Below the pieces are notes generated by a model, which was not told the origin of the DNA, did not search any database, and worked only from the letters and a program-made list of their open reading frames with translations. Both the position numbers and the translations under genes were made by a program. Below, in pieces: positions 1,245 through 14,060 of a stretch of 32,000 bases of DNA. This DNA comes from Candidatus Heimdallarchaeota archaeon B3_Heim (lineage in GTDB: Archaea; Asgardarchaeota; Heimdallarchaeia; Hodarchaeales; Hodarchaeaceae): NCBI GenBank assembly GCA_003144275.1, contig NJBF01000040.1, positions 723-32,722 of the forward strand, written 5' to 3'. Position 1 is the first letter of the stretch; the number at the start of each line of letters is the position of its first letter.

Positions 1245-1449
1245 CCAAAATTTTTCAAGTTACTGTAGAATTTTGACTCCACATACGTTAACATTGAATG
1301 AGATATCCTTTCAATACGTGTACTTAAAGGAAATTTTGAAGGGGTCGGTAGATTACTTTTACTTTAGTATACTGAAAGATTAAAAAGAACAATATATGAA
1401 TTGTGTTTGATTGCTTCTGATCTATTAGTAGGTTGGATTAAAACGGGTT

Positions 1450-1454
1450 AGGAG
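1450..1454 (+). promoter_or_regulatory. Shine-Dalgarno site of nurA
   Basis: AGGAG 6 nt upstream of the ATG at 1461. Confidence 0.55.
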
Positions 1455-1460
1455 TAGTAA

Positions 1461-2510
1461 ATGGTGAAAAAATCTTTTCATAATTTTTTGGAACAGATCC
1501 AAAACACACAAAGACAGGCTATAGAGCAAGTTGAAAGGGTACAGTCTGATAGACTTCAAGATTTTGATTATCAAGAAGATCCTCCAAAAATGATTGCGAT
1601 CGACGGCTCGAATCGCTGGATCTGGAATAATCCCGACATTAATGCACGTATTGCAATTATTCGTACCGCTTATGTTGTTTATGAGTTTAATAGCGACTTT
1701 TCCCCTCCTATGCAGATTCTTAATCAAGGTTCTCAAGATGAAGCGGTTCTGATTGCACCTGATAACCCCAACATTCATACTTATGATCAAGATTTCCAGA
1801 AATTGCATACTGAAATACAGAGAATAATTGGTCGCAAAAATCCATTAGGGGAAACCCTCTCTTTGCTTCGTTCACTTGCTGAATTCAAAATGGTGGAGGA
1901 ATTGGCTAGTAATTATACGGAATCACTGATTGTGATGGATGGCGCTTTGACTTATGTACAGATAAAAGAATTTGAAGACACCATTAGGAATATTGTCAAG
2001 GCCTGCAAGAAAAATAACAATATTTTGATTGGAGTATCAAAAAGGAATATTACACGGTGGCTTGGATCCGAACTAACTGATGAAGCAGTTATGAGAGAAA
2101 TTGCCCGAAATGACCAAAAAATGATGTATATGGATATTCCAACGATACCCAAATCCCAACAGAAATTCCCATCTATTGGTAAGACTTATCTAGCGAAATT
2201 GCATGCAAAACCTGTTAAAACCTTTAGAGTGGATATTTATAACCCTTTAAATGTAAATGATAATAAAGTTCTGTCACATCTAGCATACTACTCACAGGTG
2301 AACACATTTCCTGGATATCCATTTCCCTTAGTAGATGCACATACTATTGCAGCCCTTTTAAGGCGTGTTCCGGATATGTATAATCACGAATTACTAGAAG
2401 TCGGCATTCAACTTGGTTTCACAGAAGATGAATTACTCCAATACATGATAACACATGAAAATATGGAAACTGATCCATTCCACAGATATTTAGACGATGC
2501 AACAAGATAA
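1461..2510 (+). CDS. nurA: NurA-family DNA double-strand-break repair nuclease
   Basis: Motifs AIDGS, VMDGAL, IGVSK, YLAKLH and GYPFPLVDAH; lies directly upstream of herA. Confidence 0.9.
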   Translation: MVKKSFHNFLEQIQNTQRQAIEQVERVQSDRLQDFDYQEDPPKMIAIDGSNRWIWNNPDINARIAIIRTAYVVYEFNSDFSPPMQILNQGSQDEAVLIAPDNPNIHTYDQDFQKLHTEIQRIIGRKNPLGETLSLLRSLAEFKMVEELASNYTESLIVMDGALTYVQIKEFEDTIRNIVKACKKNNNILIGVSKRNITRWLGSELTDEAVMREIARNDQKMMYMDIPTIPKSQQKFPSIGKTYLAKLHAKPVKTFRVDIYNPLNVNDNKVLSHLAYYSQVNTFPGYPFPLVDAHTIAALLRRVPDMYNHELLEVGIQLGFTEDELLQYMITHENMETDPFHRYLDDATR

Positions 2511-2537
2511 CATTCATTAAAATAAGAGGACAAAAAT

Positions 2538-4124
2538 ATGAAGAAAGATATTGAAGAAAAGATAGCTCTAGGTGAAGTTATTTCGGGTGCTGTAAGTGGT
2601 GCAATCCAATTAAAGCTCAGGACCGATAGTGAGGAAGTGAAAATAGGATTTCCTGCAGTCATTGAGGGGAAAAAATATGATTTCTTTTCCATTATTTCTG
2701 ATATTCAATTCCCAACAAGTAATGCGGTCACTATGTTAGCAAATGCAGAAAAACTGCGAAATACGATACCCTTGAATACCATCGACACTTCTAGGGGACG
2801 TACATTTTATAGTATTGCTGAGCTCCAGTGTGTTCAAATGATTGAGCAGACATCTGGCAAAGCTTTTGAATTTGAGACCCTTCCCCCTTATTTTTCATCA
2901 GGTCGATTAGCGAGTAAATCTGATGTGCAACGGGTATATCAAACAGACCTCCCTGAAAATACTCAATCAGTTGGAACCCTCAGAGGGGTAGAAGGATTTG
3001 AAATTCCAATTGATTTCAAAAAACTCGTAGAGGTACCGTTTGGGATTTTTGGTCGAACACACTCGGGAAAAACTTTTCTCAATAAGATAATCCTTGGAAA
3101 TATTATTAAAACTGAGGTATCGCAGATTCTGGTTTTTGATATGCAATCCGAATATGGGTGGCGATCCCGCGCTGATAATTCCCCTGGTCTGAAGTTTTTC
3201 TTTGAAGATCAAGTCACTCTATTAAGTCTTGACCCGAGCACAAGTAAAAGCCACGATGAGGATTTATTGATAGGAGAAAACGAAATAGAACCTGAGGATT
3301 TAATCGTAGCTTTCCAAGATCTTTCACCTACAATGATTGATGCAATTTATGAGATAAATCGAACGAAACCCTCATCACAAACTCTTATGGAAGGAATTCA
3401 TGCAGCACTGATAGCCGACCCCCCTCCTCAACGCATTAATCGTGGAACTTTGAACGCTTTGAGTAGACGTATCATGAGATTAGATCGCTTATCTTTTGTA
3501 GTGAAATCCGATAAGGGAAATTTGAATAACATACTAAAATATATACAATCAGGCCAGAATATTGTAATCGACTTTGGGAAGTTTGGAGCGGATTTCTTCG
3601 CGTATGTGTTTGTGGCAAACATAATTTCTCGTCGATTATATAAAAGCTATAGTGAAATGGTCGATATGAGTGATTATCCTAGACTAGTTGTCCTTCTTGA
3701 AGAGGCTCATAAGTTTTTAGACCCCAGAATCTCGAAAAATACCATTTTTGATAGGCTTGCACGAGAAATGCGTAAATTTAATCTAGTATTGGCAATGGTC
3801 GATCAGCGACCTTCGAGAATTGACCCTGAGATATTATCACAACTCGCAAATCGATTCATTCTTTCCTTAACAGATCCTAAAGATACCATTAATGCTTTAA
3901 CGGGCCCTGTTGATCCGGCGGCATGGCGAGCAATTGTACGTGCTATGCCTCCTCGTACTGTATTAATGTTTGGTGACGCAATCCGCGCACCGACGGCCAT
4001 GGATGTTCTGGAGTATAATGAAAGCACAATGACTCAAAAATGGCAAATTAGCAGTACGTCCCAGGAGTTACGTGATACTCTTGATTCCCTATCGGATGAT
4101 GATAAAAGAAACATGTTCAAGTGA
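2538..4124 (+). CDS. herA: HerA-family ATPase/translocase (HAS barrel plus DUF87 ATPase)
   Basis: N-terminal HAS-barrel-like region (LGEVISGAVSG), Walker A GRTHSGKT, FDMQSEYG, Walker B LLEEAHKF, arginine-finger region REMRKF and DQRPSRID.EILSQ. Confidence 0.93.
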   Translation: MKKDIEEKIALGEVISGAVSGAIQLKLRTDSEEVKIGFPAVIEGKKYDFFSIISDIQFPTSNAVTMLANAEKLRNTIPLNTIDTSRGRTFYSIAELQCVQMIEQTSGKAFEFETLPPYFSSGRLASKSDVQRVYQTDLPENTQSVGTLRGVEGFEIPIDFKKLVEVPFGIFGRTHSGKTFLNKIILGNIIKTEVSQILVFDMQSEYGWRSRADNSPGLKFFFEDQVTLLSLDPSTSKSHDEDLLIGENEIEPEDLIVAFQDLSPTMIDAIYEINRTKPSSQTLMEGIHAALIADPPPQRINRGTLNALSRRIMRLDRLSFVVKSDKGNLNNILKYIQSGQNIVIDFGKFGADFFAYVFVANIISRRLYKSYSEMVDMSDYPRLVVLLEEAHKFLDPRISKNTIFDRLAREMRKFNLVLAMVDQRPSRIDPEILSQLANRFILSLTDPKDTINALTGPVDPAAWRAIVRAMPPRTVLMFGDAIRAPTAMDVLEYNESTMTQKWQISSTSQELRDTLDSLSDDDKRNMFK

Positions 4125-4158
4125 TTAATCCTTATTTTTAATTCGAGATTTGATTAGA

Positions 4159-5382
4159 ATGGCAAAAATCGTCATAGTGGGAGATGTCCATATTGGAAAG
4201 CGATATGCATATCGTGTCAATTTGAAAACAGGCATTAGCGACCGTACTTTAGATTTTATTAATGCTCTTTCTAGAGTAGTTGCTTATGCAATCAATAATA
4301 AGGCCGATATATTTATCATTGCAGGGGATCTGTACGATCGCGTCACAGTCGGTCCAACACTTCTTCGACAAGTTAGAGAAACAATTTGGCAGCCTCTTAT
4401 TGAAGCAAAAATTCCGATAGTTTGTATTGGGGGAAATCATGACTCACCACAAATATTTGAGAAAGGATCACCATTGGGAGAAATTTCTCTTTTTCCGAAT
4501 AGTATTGTAGCACGATCTCCACAAACCGCTATAGTACACACTATGACTACAAAGGAAGAAATTGGTTTTCTTCTCCTACCATATCTAACGGCATCCCAAG
4601 TTGTGAAGTTTGTAGAAGAACGTCTTGGTAAATCTGTCGAGAAGGAAAGACAGATGGTTTTAAGTCAAGAATATCTTAAATACTTTATAGAAAATGAATT
4701 AAAACAACTTCCCACTAAGACAAATCTTCTTGTTGGTCATTACTTCTTTCAAGGATCCAAAATTAATATTATTCCATACCCAGATCATCTTCCTCATGAA
4801 TTCAAATTTAAGAAAGATATGCTACCATTAGATAAAATTGACTTAGCAATATTCGGTCATATTCATACCACTCAAACTTTACATGGTGGAAAAGTTTTAG
4901 TTCCTGGATCATTGGAACGAGTAGATTTTGGTGAGGTGAACGAGGATAAAGGATTTTATGTATTCGAAACTACAACAGGAAAGCTAGAATTTATTACAAA
5001 TAATCCTCGTTCGTTAGTTAAACAGTTTATTGAAGTACCAAGGGTAGAGGATCCTACAAATTACATAATTCAAAATTTACCAAGAACATTAGAAGAGTCT
5101 ATTGTCCGTATAATTATAAAAATATCCCCCGAATTAAAGAAGAAAGTACGTCTGCCACGTATTCATCAAGCGTTAGATTCAACATTTCATTTTGAATTGT
5201 TCTGGGATACTTCTATAACTCAACGTGAAATAGTTCTCACTGATTTTGTTCTAGATCCATTAGTCTTATTTAATGACTTTATTACGAGAAAACTTGATCA
5301 AGACCCCAATTTGGAACAATTACGTCAAAAAGGATTAGAAATTCTTGATCGAGCACTCGCTCAGGTGGAAGAAAAGCTATGA
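4159..5382 (+). CDS. mre11: Mre11/SbcD metallophosphoesterase nuclease (alternative TTG start at 4150)
   Basis: All five phosphoesterase motifs: GDVHIG, AGDLYD, GGNHDS, VGH and FGHIH; also PGSLERVDFGE. The stop overlaps the rad50 start (ATGA). Confidence 0.93.
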   Translation: MAKIVIVGDVHIGKRYAYRVNLKTGISDRTLDFINALSRVVAYAINNKADIFIIAGDLYDRVTVGPTLLRQVRETIWQPLIEAKIPIVCIGGNHDSPQIFEKGSPLGEISLFPNSIVARSPQTAIVHTMTTKEEIGFLLLPYLTASQVVKFVEERLGKSVEKERQMVLSQEYLKYFIENELKQLPTKTNLLVGHYFFQGSKINIIPYPDHLPHEFKFKKDMLPLDKIDLAIFGHIHTTQTLHGGKVLVPGSLERVDFGEVNEDKGFYVFETTTGKLEFITNNPRSLVKQFIEVPRVEDPTNYIIQNLPRTLEESIVRIIIKISPELKKKVRLPRIHQALDSTFHFELFWDTSITQREIVLTDFVLDPLVLFNDFITRKLDQDPNLEQLRQKGLEILDRALAQVEEKL

Positions 5383-7754
5383 GCGATACAGCCCATCACT
5401 CTTTCGGGGGAGGTTTTGATCTAATTTCTCTAGAAATATATCGCTTCATGAATTATCTGGGGAAACCAGTTAAATTTGCTTTCAATGCTCCCAATATCGT
5501 CATCTCTGGTCCAACCGGTTCAGGAAAAACAACAATTTTAGATGCCCTAACATTTGCTCTATTCGGTAGAAGCTCCCGATTGGATCTAACTATTGTTAAA
5601 ACAGAAGATATATGTGGGAATAATGGAAGAGTAACTTGTGAATTCCATATAGACAAAATCTATTACAAAATTATCCGTGGGAGGGACAGTAAGGGCAAAA
5701 GCTTTTTAGAACTGTTTATCAACAATGAACGGATTAATGGGAAAATTCCTGAGTTAAATGAGAAAATTCGGTCTACCATCCTTGGAATGAATTATGCTGC
5801 TTTTGTAAATTCGACTATCATTCGCCAAGATGAAATGAAATCACTGGGATCTAAATCCTCAACAGAACGATTAAAAACATTACAAAACCTATTTCGACTG
5901 GATATTTTTAATAAAGCTATACAAGACACTCAAGAACAACTAATGACAATAAATGGCTTGAAAAATAAAGTAGAGGGTGAATTGCAAACAAATAAGAAGA
6001 ATTTTTCCTCTAAAATACTTTTAGAAAAGAAAGTAAATCAATTAGTTCCTCAATTACAGAAATTGAAGAGTGAGGAAAAGAAGTCATTCAAGATAATCGG
6101 TGAAAAGGAACTAGAGAAGAATGAGAAACAAGAATTACATGAAAAATTCCAAATCACTTTAGATAGTATGAAAAACTCTGAAAAACAACTTATGAAGCTT
6201 GAAAATTCAGAGAGGAAATCAGAAGAAGAATTAAAAAAATATATGAAATTAAAAAATAATTCTATGGTTTTAGAGAAGCAAATTGAAGTAATTCGTAATC
6301 ATGATGAGGAAATAAGATCTCTTGAAAGCAAGAAAAAAGAGTATACATTTATAAAATCTGGGATAGAAAAATTGATCCAGAGACGAAGGAAAGATGAATT
6401 ACGACTCATAAAAGATACAGAAAAGAAGAATAATCTGAAAGCAGAAACAGTAAAGCGAATTGCGAACCTTACGACCGATATCGATCATAAAAAGGCTTTT
6501 CAAATCTTGCAACAGGAGGGAAGATTAGGGGAACGAATTCAAAGAATTTCTCTTGAAAAATCATGGAAATTACCCGATAAACTCATTCAGGAATTACTAC
6601 AGGAACAATTAAACGCAAGATCTGATCTCAAAGAGTTATTAACGGAGAAAACAAAGATCAATATCGACTCTTTTAGATTATCTGAAATCCAAGACACGGA
6701 AAACCAGTTAATAGCGGAAATCGAGAAATTAAATGAACGATTAAGCGAGTTAAAGGAATCTTCAGAGAAGGAAATCCAAGAGGAGAAAAACAAGCAAAAG
6801 AAGATTGGATTTTCTCCAGAAATACAGAAACATCTTGATATGTTGAAAAACTCACAAATTACTAATGAAAAGATAAAAAAAGAGTATACTACAGCAAAAC
6901 ATAACTTTGAGTCAATAATTGATCCTACAAGCAAAATAAATACTCTACAAAATCAAATCAAAGTGATTAAAGAGGAGAGAGTAAGATTTCGAGAGGAACT
7001 TAAAGATTATCGACAATTTCAAAAGGAGTTTGAATTTCTTAAAACTGACTTGAAAGAAAAAAAAGAAAGTGTCGAAAAATTACAGATCCAATGTGTTCGT
7101 ATGGATCAGGATATTAAGAACCTGCAATTTAATATTCTAGAACTTCAAAAATTAAAGCCAGAAATTAAAAAACTTGAGAAAAAGTTGGACAAGTTTATTC
7201 AGGAAGAAAACGTTTTAATTAAACTGAAGAATGAGGTGTTTCATATAAGGGGCGCTCCTTTCTATGCAATTAACAAGATACTACCTCATCTTGGTAAGCG
7301 TGCTTCCCTAATTTTGTCAGATTTAACAAGCCGAAAATTAACTAGTGTTCAATTAGAAAGAATTGATAAAGGAAAACAAGGTTTGGGATTCAACATTAAC
7401 ATCCAAACTCCTCAAGGACCTCGGGATATTTCAACCTTTTCTGGTGGTGAACGTACTCAAATTAATGCGGCATTAAGATTAGCGATCAGTGAAGAACTTT
7501 CCTATTTTGGTGGAGAAAGAGCTCAAGAATCAGGAACAAAGAAGACACTATTTATTGATGAGGGAGATTTGGGATCCCTTGATACTATGGAAGCTCAACA
7601 AGCATTCGTCAAGAAGCTCTTTGAATTAAGTAATAAATTTAAGATCATATTAATAACCCACATCACAGAAATTGCGGATCAATTTCCACATTCCATTCAG
7701 ATTACACGTGATACTTACGGGAGATCTATGAAAAATGCTGCGAGTGATACTTAG
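5379..7754 (+). CDS. rad50: Rad50/SbcC SMC-like ATPase lacking a CXXC zinc hook
   Basis: Walker A GPTGSGKT, Q-loop IIRQDE, about 440 aa of coiled coil, signature FSGGE, Walker B/D-loop LFIDEGDLGSLD and H-loop LITH. Confidence 0.92.
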   Translation: MSDTAHHSFGGGFDLISLEIYRFMNYLGKPVKFAFNAPNIVISGPTGSGKTTILDALTFALFGRSSRLDLTIVKTEDICGNNGRVTCEFHIDKIYYKIIRGRDSKGKSFLELFINNERINGKIPELNEKIRSTILGMNYAAFVNSTIIRQDEMKSLGSKSSTERLKTLQNLFRLDIFNKAIQDTQEQLMTINGLKNKVEGELQTNKKNFSSKILLEKKVNQLVPQLQKLKSEEKKSFKIIGEKELEKNEKQELHEKFQITLDSMKNSEKQLMKLENSERKSEEELKKYMKLKNNSMVLEKQIEVIRNHDEEIRSLESKKKEYTFIKSGIEKLIQRRRKDELRLIKDTEKKNNLKAETVKRIANLTTDIDHKKAFQILQQEGRLGERIQRISLEKSWKLPDKLIQELLQEQLNARSDLKELLTEKTKINIDSFRLSEIQDTENQLIAEIEKLNERLSELKESSEKEIQEEKNKQKKIGFSPEIQKHLDMLKNSQITNEKIKKEYTTAKHNFESIIDPTSKINTLQNQIKVIKEERVRFREELKDYRQFQKEFEFLKTDLKEKKESVEKLQIQCVRMDQDIKNLQFNILELQKLKPEIKKLEKKLDKFIQEENVLIKLKNEVFHIRGAPFYAINKILPHLGKRASLILSDLTSRKLTSVQLERIDKGKQGLGFNINIQTPQGPRDISTFSGGERTQINAALRLAISEELSYFGGERAQESGTKKTLFIDEGDLGSLDTMEAQQAFVKKLFELSNKFKIILITHITEIADQFPHSIQITRDTYGRSMKNAASDT

Positions 7755-10018
7755 TGATCTCTGAATTCATTAAGAAAATCAAGAATACATCTTATTATAA
7801 AGACCAAATTATATTCCAAAGGAGTATTCCTGAGAAAGACCCCCAATTTGGATCGCTTGCCTTCCAATTAGCTCCAGAACTTGAGCAATGGCTGCGAGAG
7901 AACGAATGGAAGCTTTATTCTCACCAAGCCGATGCCCTGAATATTATAAATAAAGGAAAAAATGTTGTTGTAACCACTTCAACAGCATCGGGTAAAACAT
8001 TAATTTTTTCATTGGCGGTAGCTCAAGCAATCACTCAAAGAGAAAATTCAACAGCATTATTCTTATATCCTATGAAAGCCCTAGCTAATGATCAGCTCAG
8101 TAAAATGGAAGAACTGAACGCAGTGTTGGAGGGGAGACTGCGACCTTTTATTTATGATGGAGACACACCATCCGAAAGACGACCAGCGATTCGAAATACG
8201 GCCCGGGTTATTATCTCAAATCCATATGCCTTCCATCGCTATTTAGACTGGCATTCAAAGTGGGAACGATTTTTTCGAAATCTAAGATTTATAGTTATTG
8301 ATGAGGCACATACCTACCGAGGAGTGTTTGGTTCAAATGTAGCACAACTTATTCGGAGATTACAACGGATCTGTGAATTTTATCGTTCCCAACCACAATT
8401 TATTCTCTCTTCAGCTACAATAAACAATCCAAGAGAATTTGCTGAGAAGCTTATTGGTACTCCTCTTCATATCATCACGAACGATGGTTCTCAGCAAGGT
8501 TCAAAGGAATTAGTTATATGGAACCCTCCCTTTGTCGATCAGTTTAATTCAAAACGAAGATCACCACATCAAGAGACACGTGATTTACTTTTTAGCCATT
8601 TAAGTGAACATTATCAGACGCTTTGCTTCACCCTTTCAAGAAAAATGTCGGAAATCATTGCAGTCTGGGCGCGTCAAGATCTCGAGAAGCACGAATTAGA
8701 TCCTGAACAAGTAATGGCTTATCGAGCAGGGTATCGTCCCCTAGAACGAAGGAGAATTGAGAGCCAATTAAGGAATCGGGAAATATCTGCAGTCGTTAGC
8801 ACAAATGCTCTTGAAGTAGGTATTGATATTGGCAATCTAGATGCAGTGCTTCTAAGTGGATTCCCAGGTACAATAATTTCAACTTGGCAACAAATCGGAC
8901 GTGTCGGTAGAACTACTCGTCCTTCTCTTGCCACTCTAATTCTCTTTGAAGACGCTTATCAGCAGTTCTTAGGGCGTCATCCAGAATATTTCCTAGAGAA
9001 GACCCCTGAGAATGCTATAATTGATTTAAACAATCCATATATCGTAAAAGGACACATTTTGTGTGCAGCTTCAGAACTACCTATTAAAAAAGCTGAAATC
9101 AGCAAAATATGGGGAGAAGTTGGGATGAAAGTTATCAAAGAGTTATTAAATCAGGATGTACTAAAACTAGTTCCTGCAGGTATAGTTCCCAAGTCAATTA
9201 AGCATCCTTCACAACAAGTCAGTTTAAATTCAGCATTTACAGAGTCTATTGAGATTATAGTGAGTGAAAAGTTGTTAGAAACGATGACAACGGCCCAAGC
9301 ATATCGTGAAGCGCATGAGGGAGCGATTTTAATCCATCAAGGGGAGAAATATCTTATTGAGACTATTGATTGGGAGAATAAGAAGGCTTATGCATCTCCC
9401 CATCGGGTTGATTATTATACAGAAGCCATTTCTATAAGTGATGTAGAAATTATTGCCCAAGAAAACGAAAAGGATATTGGGTACTTATTGACCTTTGGTG
9501 AAGTTAAAGTAACTGAGTTCTATCATTCCTACAGAAAAAAAACATACGATGAAGTGCTTGAAATAGTACCATTCGACCTTCCCCCACTGGAATTTAATAC
9601 GAAAGCTGTGTGGATTAATCTTCCTTCATCTATAGTAACTAAAGTAAAAGCGGAGAAGAAAGATTTTTCTGGGGGAATTCATGCATTAGAGCATGCAACG
9701 ATCGCTTTATCTCCCTTATTTGCTCTTTGTGATCGCTGGGATATCGGAGGCACGTCTTACCCTAATTTTCCAGATGATGGAACAGCTAAAATCTTTATTT
9801 ACGATGGATTCCCGGGGGGCATTGGAATTGCAGAACAATTATTCGAAAAGTGGGAAGTCCTCTTATCAAATGTGCTACAGCTAATCCAAGAATGTCCTTG
9901 TAGTGAGGGATGTCCTTCTTGCATTCAATCGCCTAAATGTGGTAATGATAACTTTCCTCTAAGTAAAGAAGTGGCAATTGACCTTTTGAAAGAATTAAAA
10001 TTGCTTTCAAAGAACTGA
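7754..10018 (+). CDS. DEAH-box SF2 helicase with C-terminal DUF1998 Zn-binding domain (MrfA/SftH/Hrq1 family)
   Basis: LYSHQ (Q motif), TSTASGKT, YPMKALANDQ, YDGDTP, IDEAHTYRGVFGS, SSATINNP, YRAGY, STNALEVGIDIG, QQIGRVGR; C-terminal HALEHA, YDGFPGGIG and CPCSEGCPSCIQSPKC. The GTG start overlaps the rad50 TAG. Confidence 0.93.
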   Translation: MISEFIKKIKNTSYYKDQIIFQRSIPEKDPQFGSLAFQLAPELEQWLRENEWKLYSHQADALNIINKGKNVVVTTSTASGKTLIFSLAVAQAITQRENSTALFLYPMKALANDQLSKMEELNAVLEGRLRPFIYDGDTPSERRPAIRNTARVIISNPYAFHRYLDWHSKWERFFRNLRFIVIDEAHTYRGVFGSNVAQLIRRLQRICEFYRSQPQFILSSATINNPREFAEKLIGTPLHIITNDGSQQGSKELVIWNPPFVDQFNSKRRSPHQETRDLLFSHLSEHYQTLCFTLSRKMSEIIAVWARQDLEKHELDPEQVMAYRAGYRPLERRRIESQLRNREISAVVSTNALEVGIDIGNLDAVLLSGFPGTIISTWQQIGRVGRTTRPSLATLILFEDAYQQFLGRHPEYFLEKTPENAIIDLNNPYIVKGHILCAASELPIKKAEISKIWGEVGMKVIKELLNQDVLKLVPAGIVPKSIKHPSQQVSLNSAFTESIEIIVSEKLLETMTTAQAYREAHEGAILIHQGEKYLIETIDWENKKAYASPHRVDYYTEAISISDVEIIAQENEKDIGYLLTFGEVKVTEFYHSYRKKTYDEVLEIVPFDLPPLEFNTKAVWINLPSSIVTKVKAEKKDFSGGIHALEHATIALSPLFALCDRWDIGGTSYPNFPDDGTAKIFIYDGFPGGIGIAEQLFEKWEVLLSNVLQLIQECPCSEGCPSCIQSPKCGNDNFPLSKEVAIDLLKELKLLSKN

Positions 10019-10346: not shown

Positions 10347-13300
10347 TTATGAGTTGAATGTTTTTCCACAACTACTACAAAACTTTGCTTCTAGAGGCAT
10401 TCGAACGCCACATTGGACACAATATTTGTGCAATGGAATCTGGGGTTTTGGGGTGATTTCTAGGGATTGCTTACGTTGATAAGAGTACGAATAGGGGTCA
10501 TATCGTTTCCGTTCATTTCGACGAATAAAGTATATAATTGCAATCGTAACTCCCAGCGCAAATACGACTGCGAGAATGAGAAGGGGAATATCAATGAAGC
10601 TAGGATTTGATATTTGAAAGAAGATTGGTTCGAGAATTGAATTCCCTTGAGCGTCACGAACATAGAAAAGAAGAAGAAAATATTCCCCCTGAATCTTTAC
10701 TTCTAGATCTTCCTCATCTGGTAAAGGTATAGGGAGATCAGGTACAGTAAATATACCTGTATGCACGCTACTATCTAAAGAGGATGGATTAAGAGTAAAA
10801 CTGTCAAAAACAATTCGATCAGCGGCAAAGAGGTAATAATGGATAAGCTGGTAATAAACTTCAAATTTTACTGAGTTTTCATCGTATAAGCTAAGCGAAA
10901 TCTCTATCTCTTCTGCAGGTTTCCATTTAGGGACATCTTGAAAAGTTAAGATTTGCAGATAATCATCAACAGTACGATCCCCAATAAAGCTCTGAGACCC
11001 TAGAATTACTGGTTCTTCGTCAGGAACATAAAAATAGTCACGATCTGTTTTTATTAACATCGGTTGTTTTTGCTCATTTTCCCACCATACTTGGATTTCA
11101 TAAGTGTAATATCCTGGATGCAATCCTCCTGGAACTAACCAACTCGTCAATTTTAAGGTCGAATTATAATTGTAAAATTTCTCTTCAATCATGTAACTAC
11201 TAGAGAAAATCTCTGAATCCAATGGAGGAATTATAACGTCCAGTGAATCTTCATATTGGCTGGAGATGATAAGAATTGCTGAAATATTGGAACTTGAGGT
11301 ATGCGTTACGGCCACGTCTAACCCCCTATCAAGAAGAAGATCATCTGAATTATCCCACCAAGAGGGAGTAGGTATTTCAAGAGACGTTATAGGGTGGACT
11401 TCAATTTCTTCAACAGTCGGAATTTGAGAAGTAGAGAGAGGTACATCTGACGTAACATTTAATGTTCCGAGAATAACATCCCCCACAAGGTTTATTCTCA
11501 CATGTGTTCCATCAACACCAGCTAACGAAAAGTCAAGATAGGCAAAAGTAAGTGTACCATTATATGGGACATTAATATCATTGATTTGTGATCCATTTTC
11601 GAGTTCGATTGTAAGTGAGAAATTCTGTTCTAAAGATGGGTAAATGGCAACCTCCATTGCCAAAGAATCTGGAGCTACTTGAACATTGAATGTGGTATGA
11701 TTTGGAGATAACCAATCCAAAACATTGGACAGAAAGATCTGTCCTGAGGTACTTCGGAGATAAGATGAATAAATCCACTCTTCACTGCCTAAAAGAAGCA
11801 CCTTTCCCTTCCCCTCTGGCTCCAAACCTGCCAGTACAAGTTGGGTGTCGACTTGAGCATAATGCGCTAGTGACTGGTCAGTTTTATTTCCGTAAAAAGC
11901 AGTTCCCCCCAATCTTGGAAGATTTTCTACTCCAACAAAGAATGGATTGTCACTACTTATATCTAAATCATCTTTTGATAGAAAATATGGTACTGGAATT
12001 CTATCTTGTCCATCATCGATGTATTCAACTAGCTCTGTTCTATCAGAAAGGTTGAGAGGTAGATTCAAGGCACTAATCAATTTTTCATATGGATCGAGAG
12101 TGTAATATGGAAGGAAAGATGTTACTAATAGAATTGAACCATTATTTTTGTGAAAATCGATAATACAGTCAATTTCACGATAAGTAAGGGGATCTTCAAG
12201 ATCGGTTAGGACTAAGATTCCATTTTGGGTGAGATTTGAGCTTAGTATTGGGGAATTATAGTCAATTATATCATATCGAGAACTTTGGAATAGTTGATTC
12301 AAGTAGTGATAATTATAGAAATATGAATCATCTTTTCCAGTATGGTACGTATCCCAATAAATTTTCTCATCAGGTAATTGTACCTCAAATGCTATGGGTA
12401 ATTCAAAGGTCTGATCTTCAAAAGAATAACGAATAAACCCTTGATAGGAGTCTGGGGGAGCATTAAAGGGAATATCGATAGCAAGAACCTTTTCAAAATA
12501 AGTGGCAGAAGATATAATCGTAGGAGAGAGATCAAAATCGATAAATGGAATTAGATCATTACTTACTTCCCATGTAATTGTTCCACCCGTTCCAGTTACA
12601 AAGGGCAGAGTAATTTCAACGTGATCACCAGGAAATGAAACTGGTTGAAAAAACTCTATTTCATTCCCGTTTGCTTCTGGTACTGTGGAAATTAGCTCAT
12701 AACCTGAACTTAGTTTCGAATTTTTTAACATGTCAGCTGCCATCCCTACATTTACCAGTCCACTTCCTTGGGTGTAAATAGATTCACTACCCCCTAGATC
12801 TGAGGCTGATTCCTGTAAGGCTGCACGTATGGCATAAGGAGAAGCATCTGGAAACTGATCCAAAAGCAATGCTACTGCTCCACTTACAACTGGTGCTGCC
12901 ATCGATGTCCCTGACAATACAATATAATCAGAAAGGTAAACATCCACTAATGCATTATAAGCCAAGTCAATTACCCCTCCTGATGCAAGAGGGCCAATGA
13001 TTTGGTATCCTGGAGCCACAATATCTGGATCTGGTCGAAAATCATAGGTAGGTCCTTGACTGGAAAAAGAAACGACATTTTGACTCCCATTTGTCGCACC
13101 TACTGTTAACGCTTTTTTTGCAGAAGCAGGTGTATTAATTGTCATGAAAGGAATAGAACCATCTGCTTCATTCCCTGCAGCCGTTACAACAGTAATACCA
13201 TGACCCACAACAGAATTTACTGCAAGAGCTAGAATATCCTCTGACTCCCAAGGAGCAGTAAGTCCAAATCCTAAAGAAATTGAGATTATATCAACATTTA

Positions 13301-14060
13301 ATTCAACAGCCCTATCTAAAGCGGCAATTACTGCAGAGCTGGAGGCACTCCCAAACATATCAGCCACTTTGAGATTTACTAACTCAGAACCAGTAGCTAC
13401 TCCTGGGAAAGGCCCTCCACCCGCTGCAATCCCCGCAACATGAGTACCATGCCCATGTAGATCAGAAATGTCCTCTTCAGAAGAATATCCATAATCTGAT
13501 GTTACAAATGATTCTTGATATCCGACGTTGACAAAATCTGAGTGTGAAGTATCTAATCCCGAATCTAGTATAGCTATTTTTACACCCGAGCCATCATATC
13601 CAGAAATTGTTAATGGAGATGCATTAATAATATCACTAGGGAGTTCATAATCCTGTTGTATATCTTGAATATACTTCGGGGTTAGTTCCTCTAATGAAGG
13701 TAATACTGTCATCAGTTTTGAGGATTGTACACGAGAGAATATTTGTCCAAAATCATTTTTCAGTATAGATAGATCATTTTGTGATAAAGAAACCTTACCA
13801 ATATGTAAATTTTCAAAGAATTTTAGAGAGGAATTACCATTCTGCTCAAAATGTTCTTTTAAAAGCTCCTTTTCTTCTGGGTGGTATGTAAATAAATAAA
13901 CAGAAGTACTCTCGATATTTGAAGACATATTAACAGAGTTATCCGTTGATATTTGGAGCGTTTCCCCTCCTAAAGCGACCTTCGGAATCGGGAGGATCAT
14001 TAAAAGAATTAAAACTATTTTACTTGCAAGATAAAAGGTTCTATGTTTTGCTAGATTCAA
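10347..14060 (-). CDS. Membrane-anchored S8 subtilase with a class-I-GATase-like domain, C-terminal TM helix and zinc-ribbon tail (site-1 protease-like architecture)
   Basis: Hydrophobic N-terminal signal; catalytic triad ILDSG, HGHGTHVAG and GTSMAAP; oxyanion AAGNE; SSQGP; KIYWDTYH domain; TM IPLLILAVVFALGVTIAIIYFI; CVQCG...AKFCSSCG. TTG start with GAGG upstream. Confidence 0.92.
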   Translation of the reverse strand: MNLAKHRTFYLASKIVLILLMILPIPKVALGGETLQISTDNSVNMSSNIESTSVYLFTYHPEEKELLKEHFEQNGNSSLKFFENLHIGKVSLSQNDLSILKNDFGQIFSRVQSSKLMTVLPSLEELTPKYIQDIQQDYELPSDIINASPLTISGYDGSGVKIAILDSGLDTSHSDFVNVGYQESFVTSDYGYSSEEDISDLHGHGTHVAGIAAGGGPFPGVATGSELVNLKVADMFGSASSSAVIAALDRAVELNVDIISISLGFGLTAPWESEDILALAVNSVVGHGITVVTAAGNEADGSIPFMTINTPASAKKALTVGATNGSQNVVSFSSQGPTYDFRPDPDIVAPGYQIIGPLASGGVIDLAYNALVDVYLSDYIVLSGTSMAAPVVSGAVALLLDQFPDASPYAIRAALQESASDLGGSESIYTQGSGLVNVGMAADMLKNSKLSSGYELISTVPEANGNEIEFFQPVSFPGDHVEITLPFVTGTGGTITWEVSNDLIPFIDFDLSPTIISSATYFEKVLAIDIPFNAPPDSYQGFIRYSFEDQTFELPIAFEVQLPDEKIYWDTYHTGKDDSYFYNYHYLNQLFQSSRYDIIDYNSPILSSNLTQNGILVLTDLEDPLTYREIDCIIDFHKNNGSILLVTSFLPYYTLDPYEKLISALNLPLNLSDRTELVEYIDDGQDRIPVPYFLSKDDLDISSDNPFFVGVENLPRLGGTAFYGNKTDQSLAHYAQVDTQLVLAGLEPEGKGKVLLLGSEEWIYSSYLRSTSGQIFLSNVLDWLSPNHTTFNVQVAPDSLAMEVAIYPSLEQNFSLTIELENGSQINDINVPYNGTLTFAYLDFSLAGVDGTHVRINLVGDVILGTLNVTSDVPLSTSQIPTVEEIEVHPITSLEIPTPSWWDNSDDLLLDRGLDVAVTHTSSSNISAILIISSQYEDSLDVIIPPLDSEIFSSSYMIEEKFYNYNSTLKLTSWLVPGGLHPGYYTYEIQVWWENEQKQPMLIKTDRDYFYVPDEEPVILGSQSFIGDRTVDDYLQILTFQDVPKWKPAEEIEISLSLYDENSVKFEVYYQLIHYYLFAADRIVFDSFTLNPSSLDSSVHTGIFTVPDLPIPLPDEEDLEVKIQGEYFLLLFYVRDAQGNSILEPIFFQISNPSFIDIPLLILAVVFALGVTIAIIYFIRRNERKRYDPYSYSYQRKQSLEITPKPQIPLHKYCVQCGVRMPLEAKFCSSCGKTFNS

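Follow-up and report, generated by a model that had tools for sequence, protein, structure and literature searches.

We describe an archaeal DNA end-resection operon, nurA-herA-mre11-rad50, that carries as its fifth and last gene an MrfA-type helicase of the DUF1998 family. The operon lies in a 32,000-nt stretch of DNA (contig C97:723-32722, here called the window) from a member of the Hodarchaeales, an Asgard order regarded as the closest of the archaeal orders to eukaryotes. The source assembly spans 3.95 Mb and is 94% complete. Comparison with the 21 further species representatives of the same GTDB genus (22 genus genomes in all) and with more distant relatives shows that the locus is a real variant of the archaeal resection operon, conserved at the level of the genus, that has captured an MrfA helicase. 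MrfA/YprA helicases are widespread, and to our knowledge the only repair nuclease partner known for them is MrfB. The genus offers a clean natural experiment, in which a helicase family that goes together with MrfB in the closest relatives is wired into a resection operon. Every genome compared is a metagenome bin, and absence means throughout that something was not found.

The five-gene operon

By open reading frames (ORFs) and Pfam matches, nurA, herA, mre11, rad50, and the DUF1998/MZB helicase gene are five consecutive, co-directional genes on the plus strand (positions 1461 to 10018). Genes were called from a mechanical ORF listing together with Pfam, and the junctions were read directly from the sequence letters. 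The nurA stop is followed after 27 nt by the herA ATG, and the herA stop by two possible mre11 starts, a TTG at 4150 (25 nt away) and an ATG at 4159 (34 nt away); database orthologues of 407 aa favor the ATG, with TTG 4150 as the alternative. The two remaining junctions overlap. The mre11 stop and the rad50 start share ATGA at 5379 to 5382, and the G at 7754 is common to the TAG of rad50 and the GTG of the helicase gene. A preliminary description of this DNA had given the same five-gene order, gaps of 27 and 25 to 34 nt, and ATGA and TAGTG overlaps, and the ORFs, Pfam matches, and sequence reproduce it exactly. Because an in-frame TGA (7745 to 7747) closes the helicase frame upstream and GTG 7754 is the sole ATG, GTG, or TTG within the first 40 codons after it, this GTG is the only plausible helicase start; the alignment with orthologues begins at the same codon.

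Conservation within the genus

The genus belongs to the Hodarchaeaceae and includes "Candidatus Hodarchaeum mangrovi," whose helicase locus (L065) is 65% identical; proteins orthologous to the operon products bear NCBI names such as "Candidatus Hodarchaeales archaeon." At all 17 same-genus loci with an assembled upstream side, rad50 lies directly upstream of the helicase gene, and the same is true of L065. Longer stretches of sequence show the full order nurA-herA-mre11-rad50-helicase at nine complete and five partial same-genus loci. The apparent split seen in one genome (G015) is most likely an assembly join, because it cuts rad50 itself in two within a single-record assembly that is 70% complete.

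The distance from the rad50 stop to the helicase start is −4, −1, +5/6, +9, or +14 nt in 14 genus genomes. Over the genomes that span this range, identity to the window falls to ∼44% for Rad50 (in the part compared) and to 64% for the helicase. The arrangement goes beyond chance, since the same five-gene order and tight spacing persist while the identity of the two flanking proteins declines. In a survey of 83 genomes of the class, the operon-type Mre11 and the helicase orthologue co-occur in the same 18 of the 21 other genus genomes and are jointly missing from three, all of them incomplete; one of the three (G006) shows a scaffold gap of 100 Ns precisely where the operon would be expected, beside a conserved subtilase gene.

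These observations support the view that the helicase gene belongs to the resection operon as a fifth cistron, stably kept and tightly coupled. Because the arrangement is conserved across the whole genus, a functional partnership is its best reading, which agrees with the earlier proposal that the helicase is a dedicated partner of the operon. The reading of the preliminary description would have been contradicted by an adjacency peculiar to this genome, with relatives carrying the helicase elsewhere. The first part does not hold, the adjacency being present in at least 18 species-level genomes, yet all of these belong to one genus, and relatives outside it do have the helicase elsewhere or a four-gene operon.

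Identity of the helicase and search for MrfB

The helicase is by all sequence criteria applied a clear member of the MrfA/YprA family. Its best solved relative is Bacillus subtilis YprA/MrfA (6ZNP_A; E = 9.6e-147 over residues 53 to 726), with which it shares the architecture found in the MrfA-MrfB system (YprA-YprB; 6ZNP, 6ZNQ, and 6ZNS): a superfamily 2 (SF2) DEAH core, a WHD, and a four-Cys MZB/DUF1998 domain. Motifs I, II, III, and VI (TASGKT, DEAH, SAT, and QxxGRxGR) are invariant among orthologues, as are the MZB cysteines C714, C716, C720, and C723, and the WHD is present. The DEAH, WHD, and MZB elements are all intact. The protein also matches TIGR03817, the model of actinobacterial SftH ("helicase/secretion neighbourhood DEAH-box helicase"), over its full length (723 bits; E = 4e-217), but below the model cut-off of 874 bits, and the SftH-like proteins form a separate clade (see below).

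The B. subtilis proteins are a mitomycin-repair pair in which MrfA is the helicase and MrfB a DEDDh (PF13482) exonuclease, whereas in the window the upstream overlapping gene is rad50 and MrfB was not found genus-wide (MrfB-like proteins in 0 of 22 genus genomes). The statement that no MrfB gene adjoins the helicase is confirmed and can be extended to the whole 94%-complete genome. A profile hidden Markov model (HMM) built from 17 MrfB-like sequences was compared with all six-frame ORFs of that genome, and its only matches, to exonuclease motifs in two DNA polymerases of family B, were rejected as MrfB remnants. The B. subtilis proteins MrfA and MrfB bind to one another and belong to a single pathway (bioRxiv 10.1101/426304), which indicates that MrfA-type helicases normally work with a dedicated nuclease and therefore favors a functional recruitment of the helicase.

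Two further related helicases were seen. The genome of the window also encodes a 919-aa paralogue (L004:973-3732, contig C70; ∼27 to 29% identity), which most of the genomes searched in the class have as well; this protein is extended at the N terminus, ends in a Cys-rich, MZB-like region without a Pfam call, and has a downstream 397-aa neighbor without a family. A second MrfA-type helicase in one genus genome with 7% contamination (L154; G005:C284:140-2530) clusters with Promethearchaeota/Odinarchaeota sequences and represents either bin contamination or transfer.

Origin of the linkage

In more distant Hodarchaeales, among them Heimdallarchaeota LC_3, nurA-herA-mre11-rad50 stands without the helicase, and the gene that comes next is convergent (Mre11 identity, 37 to 40%). 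In two sister-family genomes the helicase (39 to 43% identity) is located elsewhere, and one of these genomes also has an MrfB-like gene. In the sister-family genome G023, the MrfB-like gene ends 308 nt short of a contig end, and the helicase opens another contig.

Scanning the GTDB species representatives for the helicase returned 80 loci, 79 of them non-Hodarchaeum. The closest outside helicases (∼40 to 47% identity) have a gene for an MrfB-like PF13482 exonuclease immediately 5′, usually overlapping the helicase start, and are hosted by Bathyarchaeia, Methanocellaceae, Methanoregula, Methanospirillum, Thermotogota, Bacillota, and one other Heimdallarchaeia family; one bacterial group has the MrfB gene downstream of the helicase. 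Searches with phmmer and profile HMMs found no gene for NurA, HerA, Mre11, or Rad50 within 10 kb at any of the 79 non-Hodarchaeum loci.

In a maximum likelihood tree of 106 helicase sequences (quick search; support given only by the Shimodaira-Hasegawa-like approximate likelihood ratio test [SH-aLRT]), the Rad50-linked helicases form a single clade (SH-aLRT, 100). They lie in a larger clade (support, 99) together with the helicases that have mrfB upstream, the sister-family pair, and a Loki/Odin clade of stand-alone helicases; the tree gives no branch order inside the 34-member clade. The actinobacterial SftH-like clade falls apart from the clade of the window helicase. Gene neighborhoods and tree together show a rad50-helicase linkage of single origin, derived and not ancestral.

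Possible function of the linked helicase

On balance, we think it probable, if by no means secure, that the Mre11-Rad50/HerA-NurA pathway has recruited MrfA and that Mre11 or NurA stands in for MrfB. The ancestor of the Hodarchaeales would have had a four-gene nurA-herA-mre11-rad50 operon encoding a Rad50 without a zinc hook, and an mrfA gene, which in relatives is normally preceded by mrfB, would have joined it as the last cistron in the ancestor of one genus. The five genes would be transcribed from a promoter 5′ of nurA, the helicase would be translated in step with Rad50, and it may supply single-strand translocation and unwinding to the nucleases of the operon. MrfA-type helicases run 3′ to 5′ in characterized bacterial homologues, and Mre11 has the same 3′-5′ exonuclease polarity as MrfB; the helicase could feed DNA to Mre11, which would take the place of MrfB. 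Alternatively, NurA, as a 5′-3′ nuclease, could degrade the strand that is displaced, much like the nucleases of the RecQ-RecJ and Sgs1-Dna2 pairs. Likely substrates would be DNA ends and gaps that are blocked, adducted, or cross-linked, en route to homologous recombination. If the proteins do cooperate, the MrfA motor can serve different nucleases, and the operon would offer a tractable prokaryotic model for cooperation between an SF2 helicase and Mre11-Rad50.

The helicase might instead be an independent adduct or cross-link repair enzyme of the "YprA-only" type, sharing DNA-damage regulation with the operon and cooperating with it neither mechanistically nor physically. Appending a gene to the 3′ end of an operon requires no functional link, MrfA-family helicases often have no conserved neighbor (as in the Loki/Odin clade and the "YprA only" branch of Bell et al. 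2025), and none of the five proteins has acquired a clade-specific domain or extension. Mere co-expression sits less well with the failure to find MrfB in the very clade where the linkage arose, although it overlaps the helicase gene in the nearest relatives, with a spacing kept between −4 and +14 nt despite a Rad50 identity to the window as low as ∼44%, and with the helicase and the operon being present or missing together. We regard co-expression alone as a possible but rather doubtful explanation.

Recruitment could also take a stronger form, in which the helicase is a physical fifth subunit, stably attached to Mre11-Rad50 (or HerA-NurA) within one holo-complex. The geometry of the rad50 junction would suit translational coupling in 14 of 14 genomes, Bacillus MrfA binds its nuclease partner MrfB, and the genus-specific substitutions of the helicase include a cluster at residues 389 to 412 and in the MZB domain at 649 to 707. 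The clade-specific substitutions number only 17, and none of the partners shows an extra module for interaction. A complex prediction for Mre11 with helicase residues 246 to 754, the only pair modeled, gave no support (score, 0.00), a result that counts neither for nor against docking. Stable docking of this kind seems unlikely to us. So does its evolutionary counterpart, a partner swap in which MrfA, after the loss of MrfB, became a physical component of the hook-less Mre11-Rad50 (or of HerA-NurA) in a five-protein resection/adduct-repair complex. Such a complex, if true, would be a convergent archaeal counterpart of the cooperation between RecQ-family helicases and MRN in eukaryotes.

Several observations weigh against functional recruitment itself. 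Only one genus has the linkage, many MrfA homologues of other lineages stand alone (the Loki/Odin clade, for example), and adjacency to rad50 is as such unspecific, because any gene is most easily added to an operon at its 3′ end. No docking element is visible, because the helicase has no clade-specific insertion or added domain relative to its MrfB-linked and stand-alone relatives, and NurA, HerA, Mre11, and Rad50 have no clade-specific extension or insertion relative to the LC_3-type orthologues without the helicase. In some species a TATAAA-like string overlaps conserved rad50 codons 30 to 38 nt 5′ of the helicase start, and the 3′ end of rad50 may thus hold an internal helicase promoter. 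The public sequencing runs that hold positions 5379 to 10018 of the window are of DNA (metagenomes) only, with no RNA run among them. Finally, the four-gene core may itself depart from the textbook machine, because its Rad50 lacks the CxxC zinc hook, which is absent from 16 of 16 Hodarchaeales orthologues.

Relation to known systems

The window operon clusters the same four families, with catalytic motifs intact, as the archaeal herA-mre11-rad50-nurA operon of Sulfolobales and Pyrococcus and the nurA-rad50-mre11-herA operon of Thermococcus. It differs from them in its order (nurA-herA-mre11-rad50), in the fifth, SF2 helicase cistron, and in its short (791-aa), hook-less Rad50. A 2026 review of NurA (PMC13748450) presents four-gene orders only, and Hodarchaeales lie outside its coverage. 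The survey of ∼52,000 YprA homologues by Bell et al. (2025) distinguishes several defense branches from a repair branch whose members are either context-free or MrfB-linked, and its main text makes no mention of Rad50, Mre11, HerA, NurA, or SbcC. Full-text literature searches on DUF1998 in combination with Rad50, and on a helicase and Rad50 in the Hodarchaeales, returned nothing relevant. The rad50-MrfA association is described neither in the survey nor in the review nor in the texts searched.

The preliminary description had raised the possibility of a repurposed DNA-restriction system, that is, an antivirus module made of a YprA-family helicase, HerA, and nucleases. HerA does occur in defense systems, and the YprA-family systems DISARM (DrmA/B), Druantia (DruE), Dpd, and ARMADA have in common with the window operon the helicase superfamily and the MZB domain. 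PADLOC models give partial matches (DruE, 150 bits in short stretches; HerA models, ≤85 bits; LmuB, 53 bits), but these are limited to generic helicase and ATPase cores, and the best full-length relatives of the helicase are repair-type MrfA and MrfB-linked proteins, with which it also groups in the tree. The locus lacks the DrmB/DrmC, methylase (methyltransferase), PLD, Vsr, or BrxHII-like companions of defense systems, and the helicase is not of DruE size. Unlike patchy defense islands, the operon occurs in 18 of the 21 other genus genomes with conserved synteny where assembled, and it contains the only mre11-rad50 pair found in the genome. The defense interpretation can be set aside as highly improbable.

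Cooperation of RECQL4 with MRN/CtIP, of Sgs1/BLM with Dna2 and MRX/MRN, and of Hrq1 with Pso2 provides a functional analogy only, in which an SF2 helicase meets Mre11-Rad50 and a 5′ nuclease (in part, PMC7947261). The likeness of the archaeal helicase to Hrq1 amounts to one Pfam WHD_HRQ1 match. The parallel with the RECQL4-MRN link that had been drawn for this locus may stand, at most, as convergence; an ancestral tie does not, the association being late and derived inside the Hodarchaeales. Since a single genus of Hodarchaeales gained the link, and did so late, it is not ancestral to the eukaryotic arrangement, and it says nothing direct on the origin of the eukaryotic machinery.

The four resection proteins

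The catalytic motifs of the core proteins are preserved. In NurA, 42 residues are invariant among 12 Hodarchaeales orthologues, the acidic motifs IAIDGS and VMDGAL included, and HerA has largely conserved Walker A (GRTHSGKT) and Walker B (LLEEAH) motifs. The key residues of the Mre11 phosphoesterase motifs I to V (GDVH, GDLYD, GNHD, VGH, and GHIH) are invariant in 16 to 22 orthologues. Rad50 retains the Walker A, Q-loop, signature (SGGE), Walker B/D-loop, and H-loop elements flanking a coiled coil, and its best PDB matches, archaeal Rad50 heads among them, are Rad50 of Methanocaldococcus jannaschii and Thermotoga maritima and SbcC of Escherichia coli. The Pfam zinc-hook model PF04423 matched none of the 22 genus genomes; the same model does find hook-bearing Rad50s of ∼940 aa in other Heimdallarchaeia families, the sister-family genome G022 included. 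At the apex of the Hodarchaeales Rad50s (∼residues 385 to 408), the coiled coil has a single invariant patch, a motif without cysteine close to its midpoint.

The check for a second mre11/rad50 set that had been suggested earlier found no second gene pair in the genome. Three single genes were seen. One encodes an 838-aa Rad50/SMC-like ATPase (L060:7704-10220, contig C4) with CPTC at residue 337, which resembles 615- to 620-aa CPTC proteins from another Heimdallarchaeia family; it is followed by a 525-aa AAA ATPase gene and has no adjoining Mre11 gene. The others are a 956-aa ORF that has no Pfam family and matches SbcD weakly (34 bits; L061:6409-9279, contig C32) and a solitary ORF whose NurA domain is partial and whose neighbors encode a beta-propeller protein and an Rce1-like protease (L040:1423-2151, contig C35). 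A second resection operon was rejected, as none of the three genes belongs to one.

Promoter region and flanking genes

The features of the locus are collected in Table 1.

TABLE 1 Genes and candidate expression signals of the resection operon in the window
Feature	Position	Strand	Description
TATA-like AATATAT	1391-1397	+	∼65 nt 5′ of nurA; candidate archaeal operon promoter, from sequence alone
Shine-Dalgarno-like AGGAG	1450-1454	+	6 nt ahead of the nurA ATG
nurA	1461-2510	+	349 aa; predicted 5′-3′ nuclease; PF09376, 52.5 bits (cut-off, 21)
herA	2538-4124	+	528 aa; FtsK-like ring ATPase/translocase; PF01935 (DUF87), 70.8 bits; HerA NCBIfam/PADLOC matches
mre11	4159-5382	+	407 aa; predicted Mn-dependent nuclease; Metallophos, 56.5 bits; TIGR00619 SbcD, 75.8 bits
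rad50	5379-7754	+	791 aa; ABC ATPase with coiled coil; AAA_23/SMC_N
MrfA/YprA/SftH-type SF2 DEAH helicase	7754-10018	+	754 aa; DEAD, 115 bits; MZB (PF09369), 83.7 bits; Helicase_C, 54.2 bits; WHD_HRQ1 (PF22982), 39.2 bits

Ahead of nurA, TTAGGGGTT/TTAGGAGT is kept in eight genus genomes, and other genus members have TTAAAAG/TTATAAG-like strings at a comparable distance. At four loci (L158, L159, L161, and L162), a TTAAAAG/TTATAAG-like box is followed by a conserved ∼18-nt AATCATCCTAATAATCTA-like element and a strong GGGG/GGAG ribosome-binding site before nurA, and positions 1391 to 1460 of the window are a more diverged version of this region. The box and the ∼18-nt element may be a shared promoter and operator.

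On the upstream side, a 333-aa gene (214 to 1215) was considered as part of the unit and rejected; it has no family, and its position is not kept in other genus loci (near-identical G013 excluded). Downstream lies a large membrane subtilase gene on the minus strand (10347 to 14060), convergent with the helicase gene. It keeps this position in most genus loci with an assembled downstream side, which indicates that the chromosomal context of the operon is stable.

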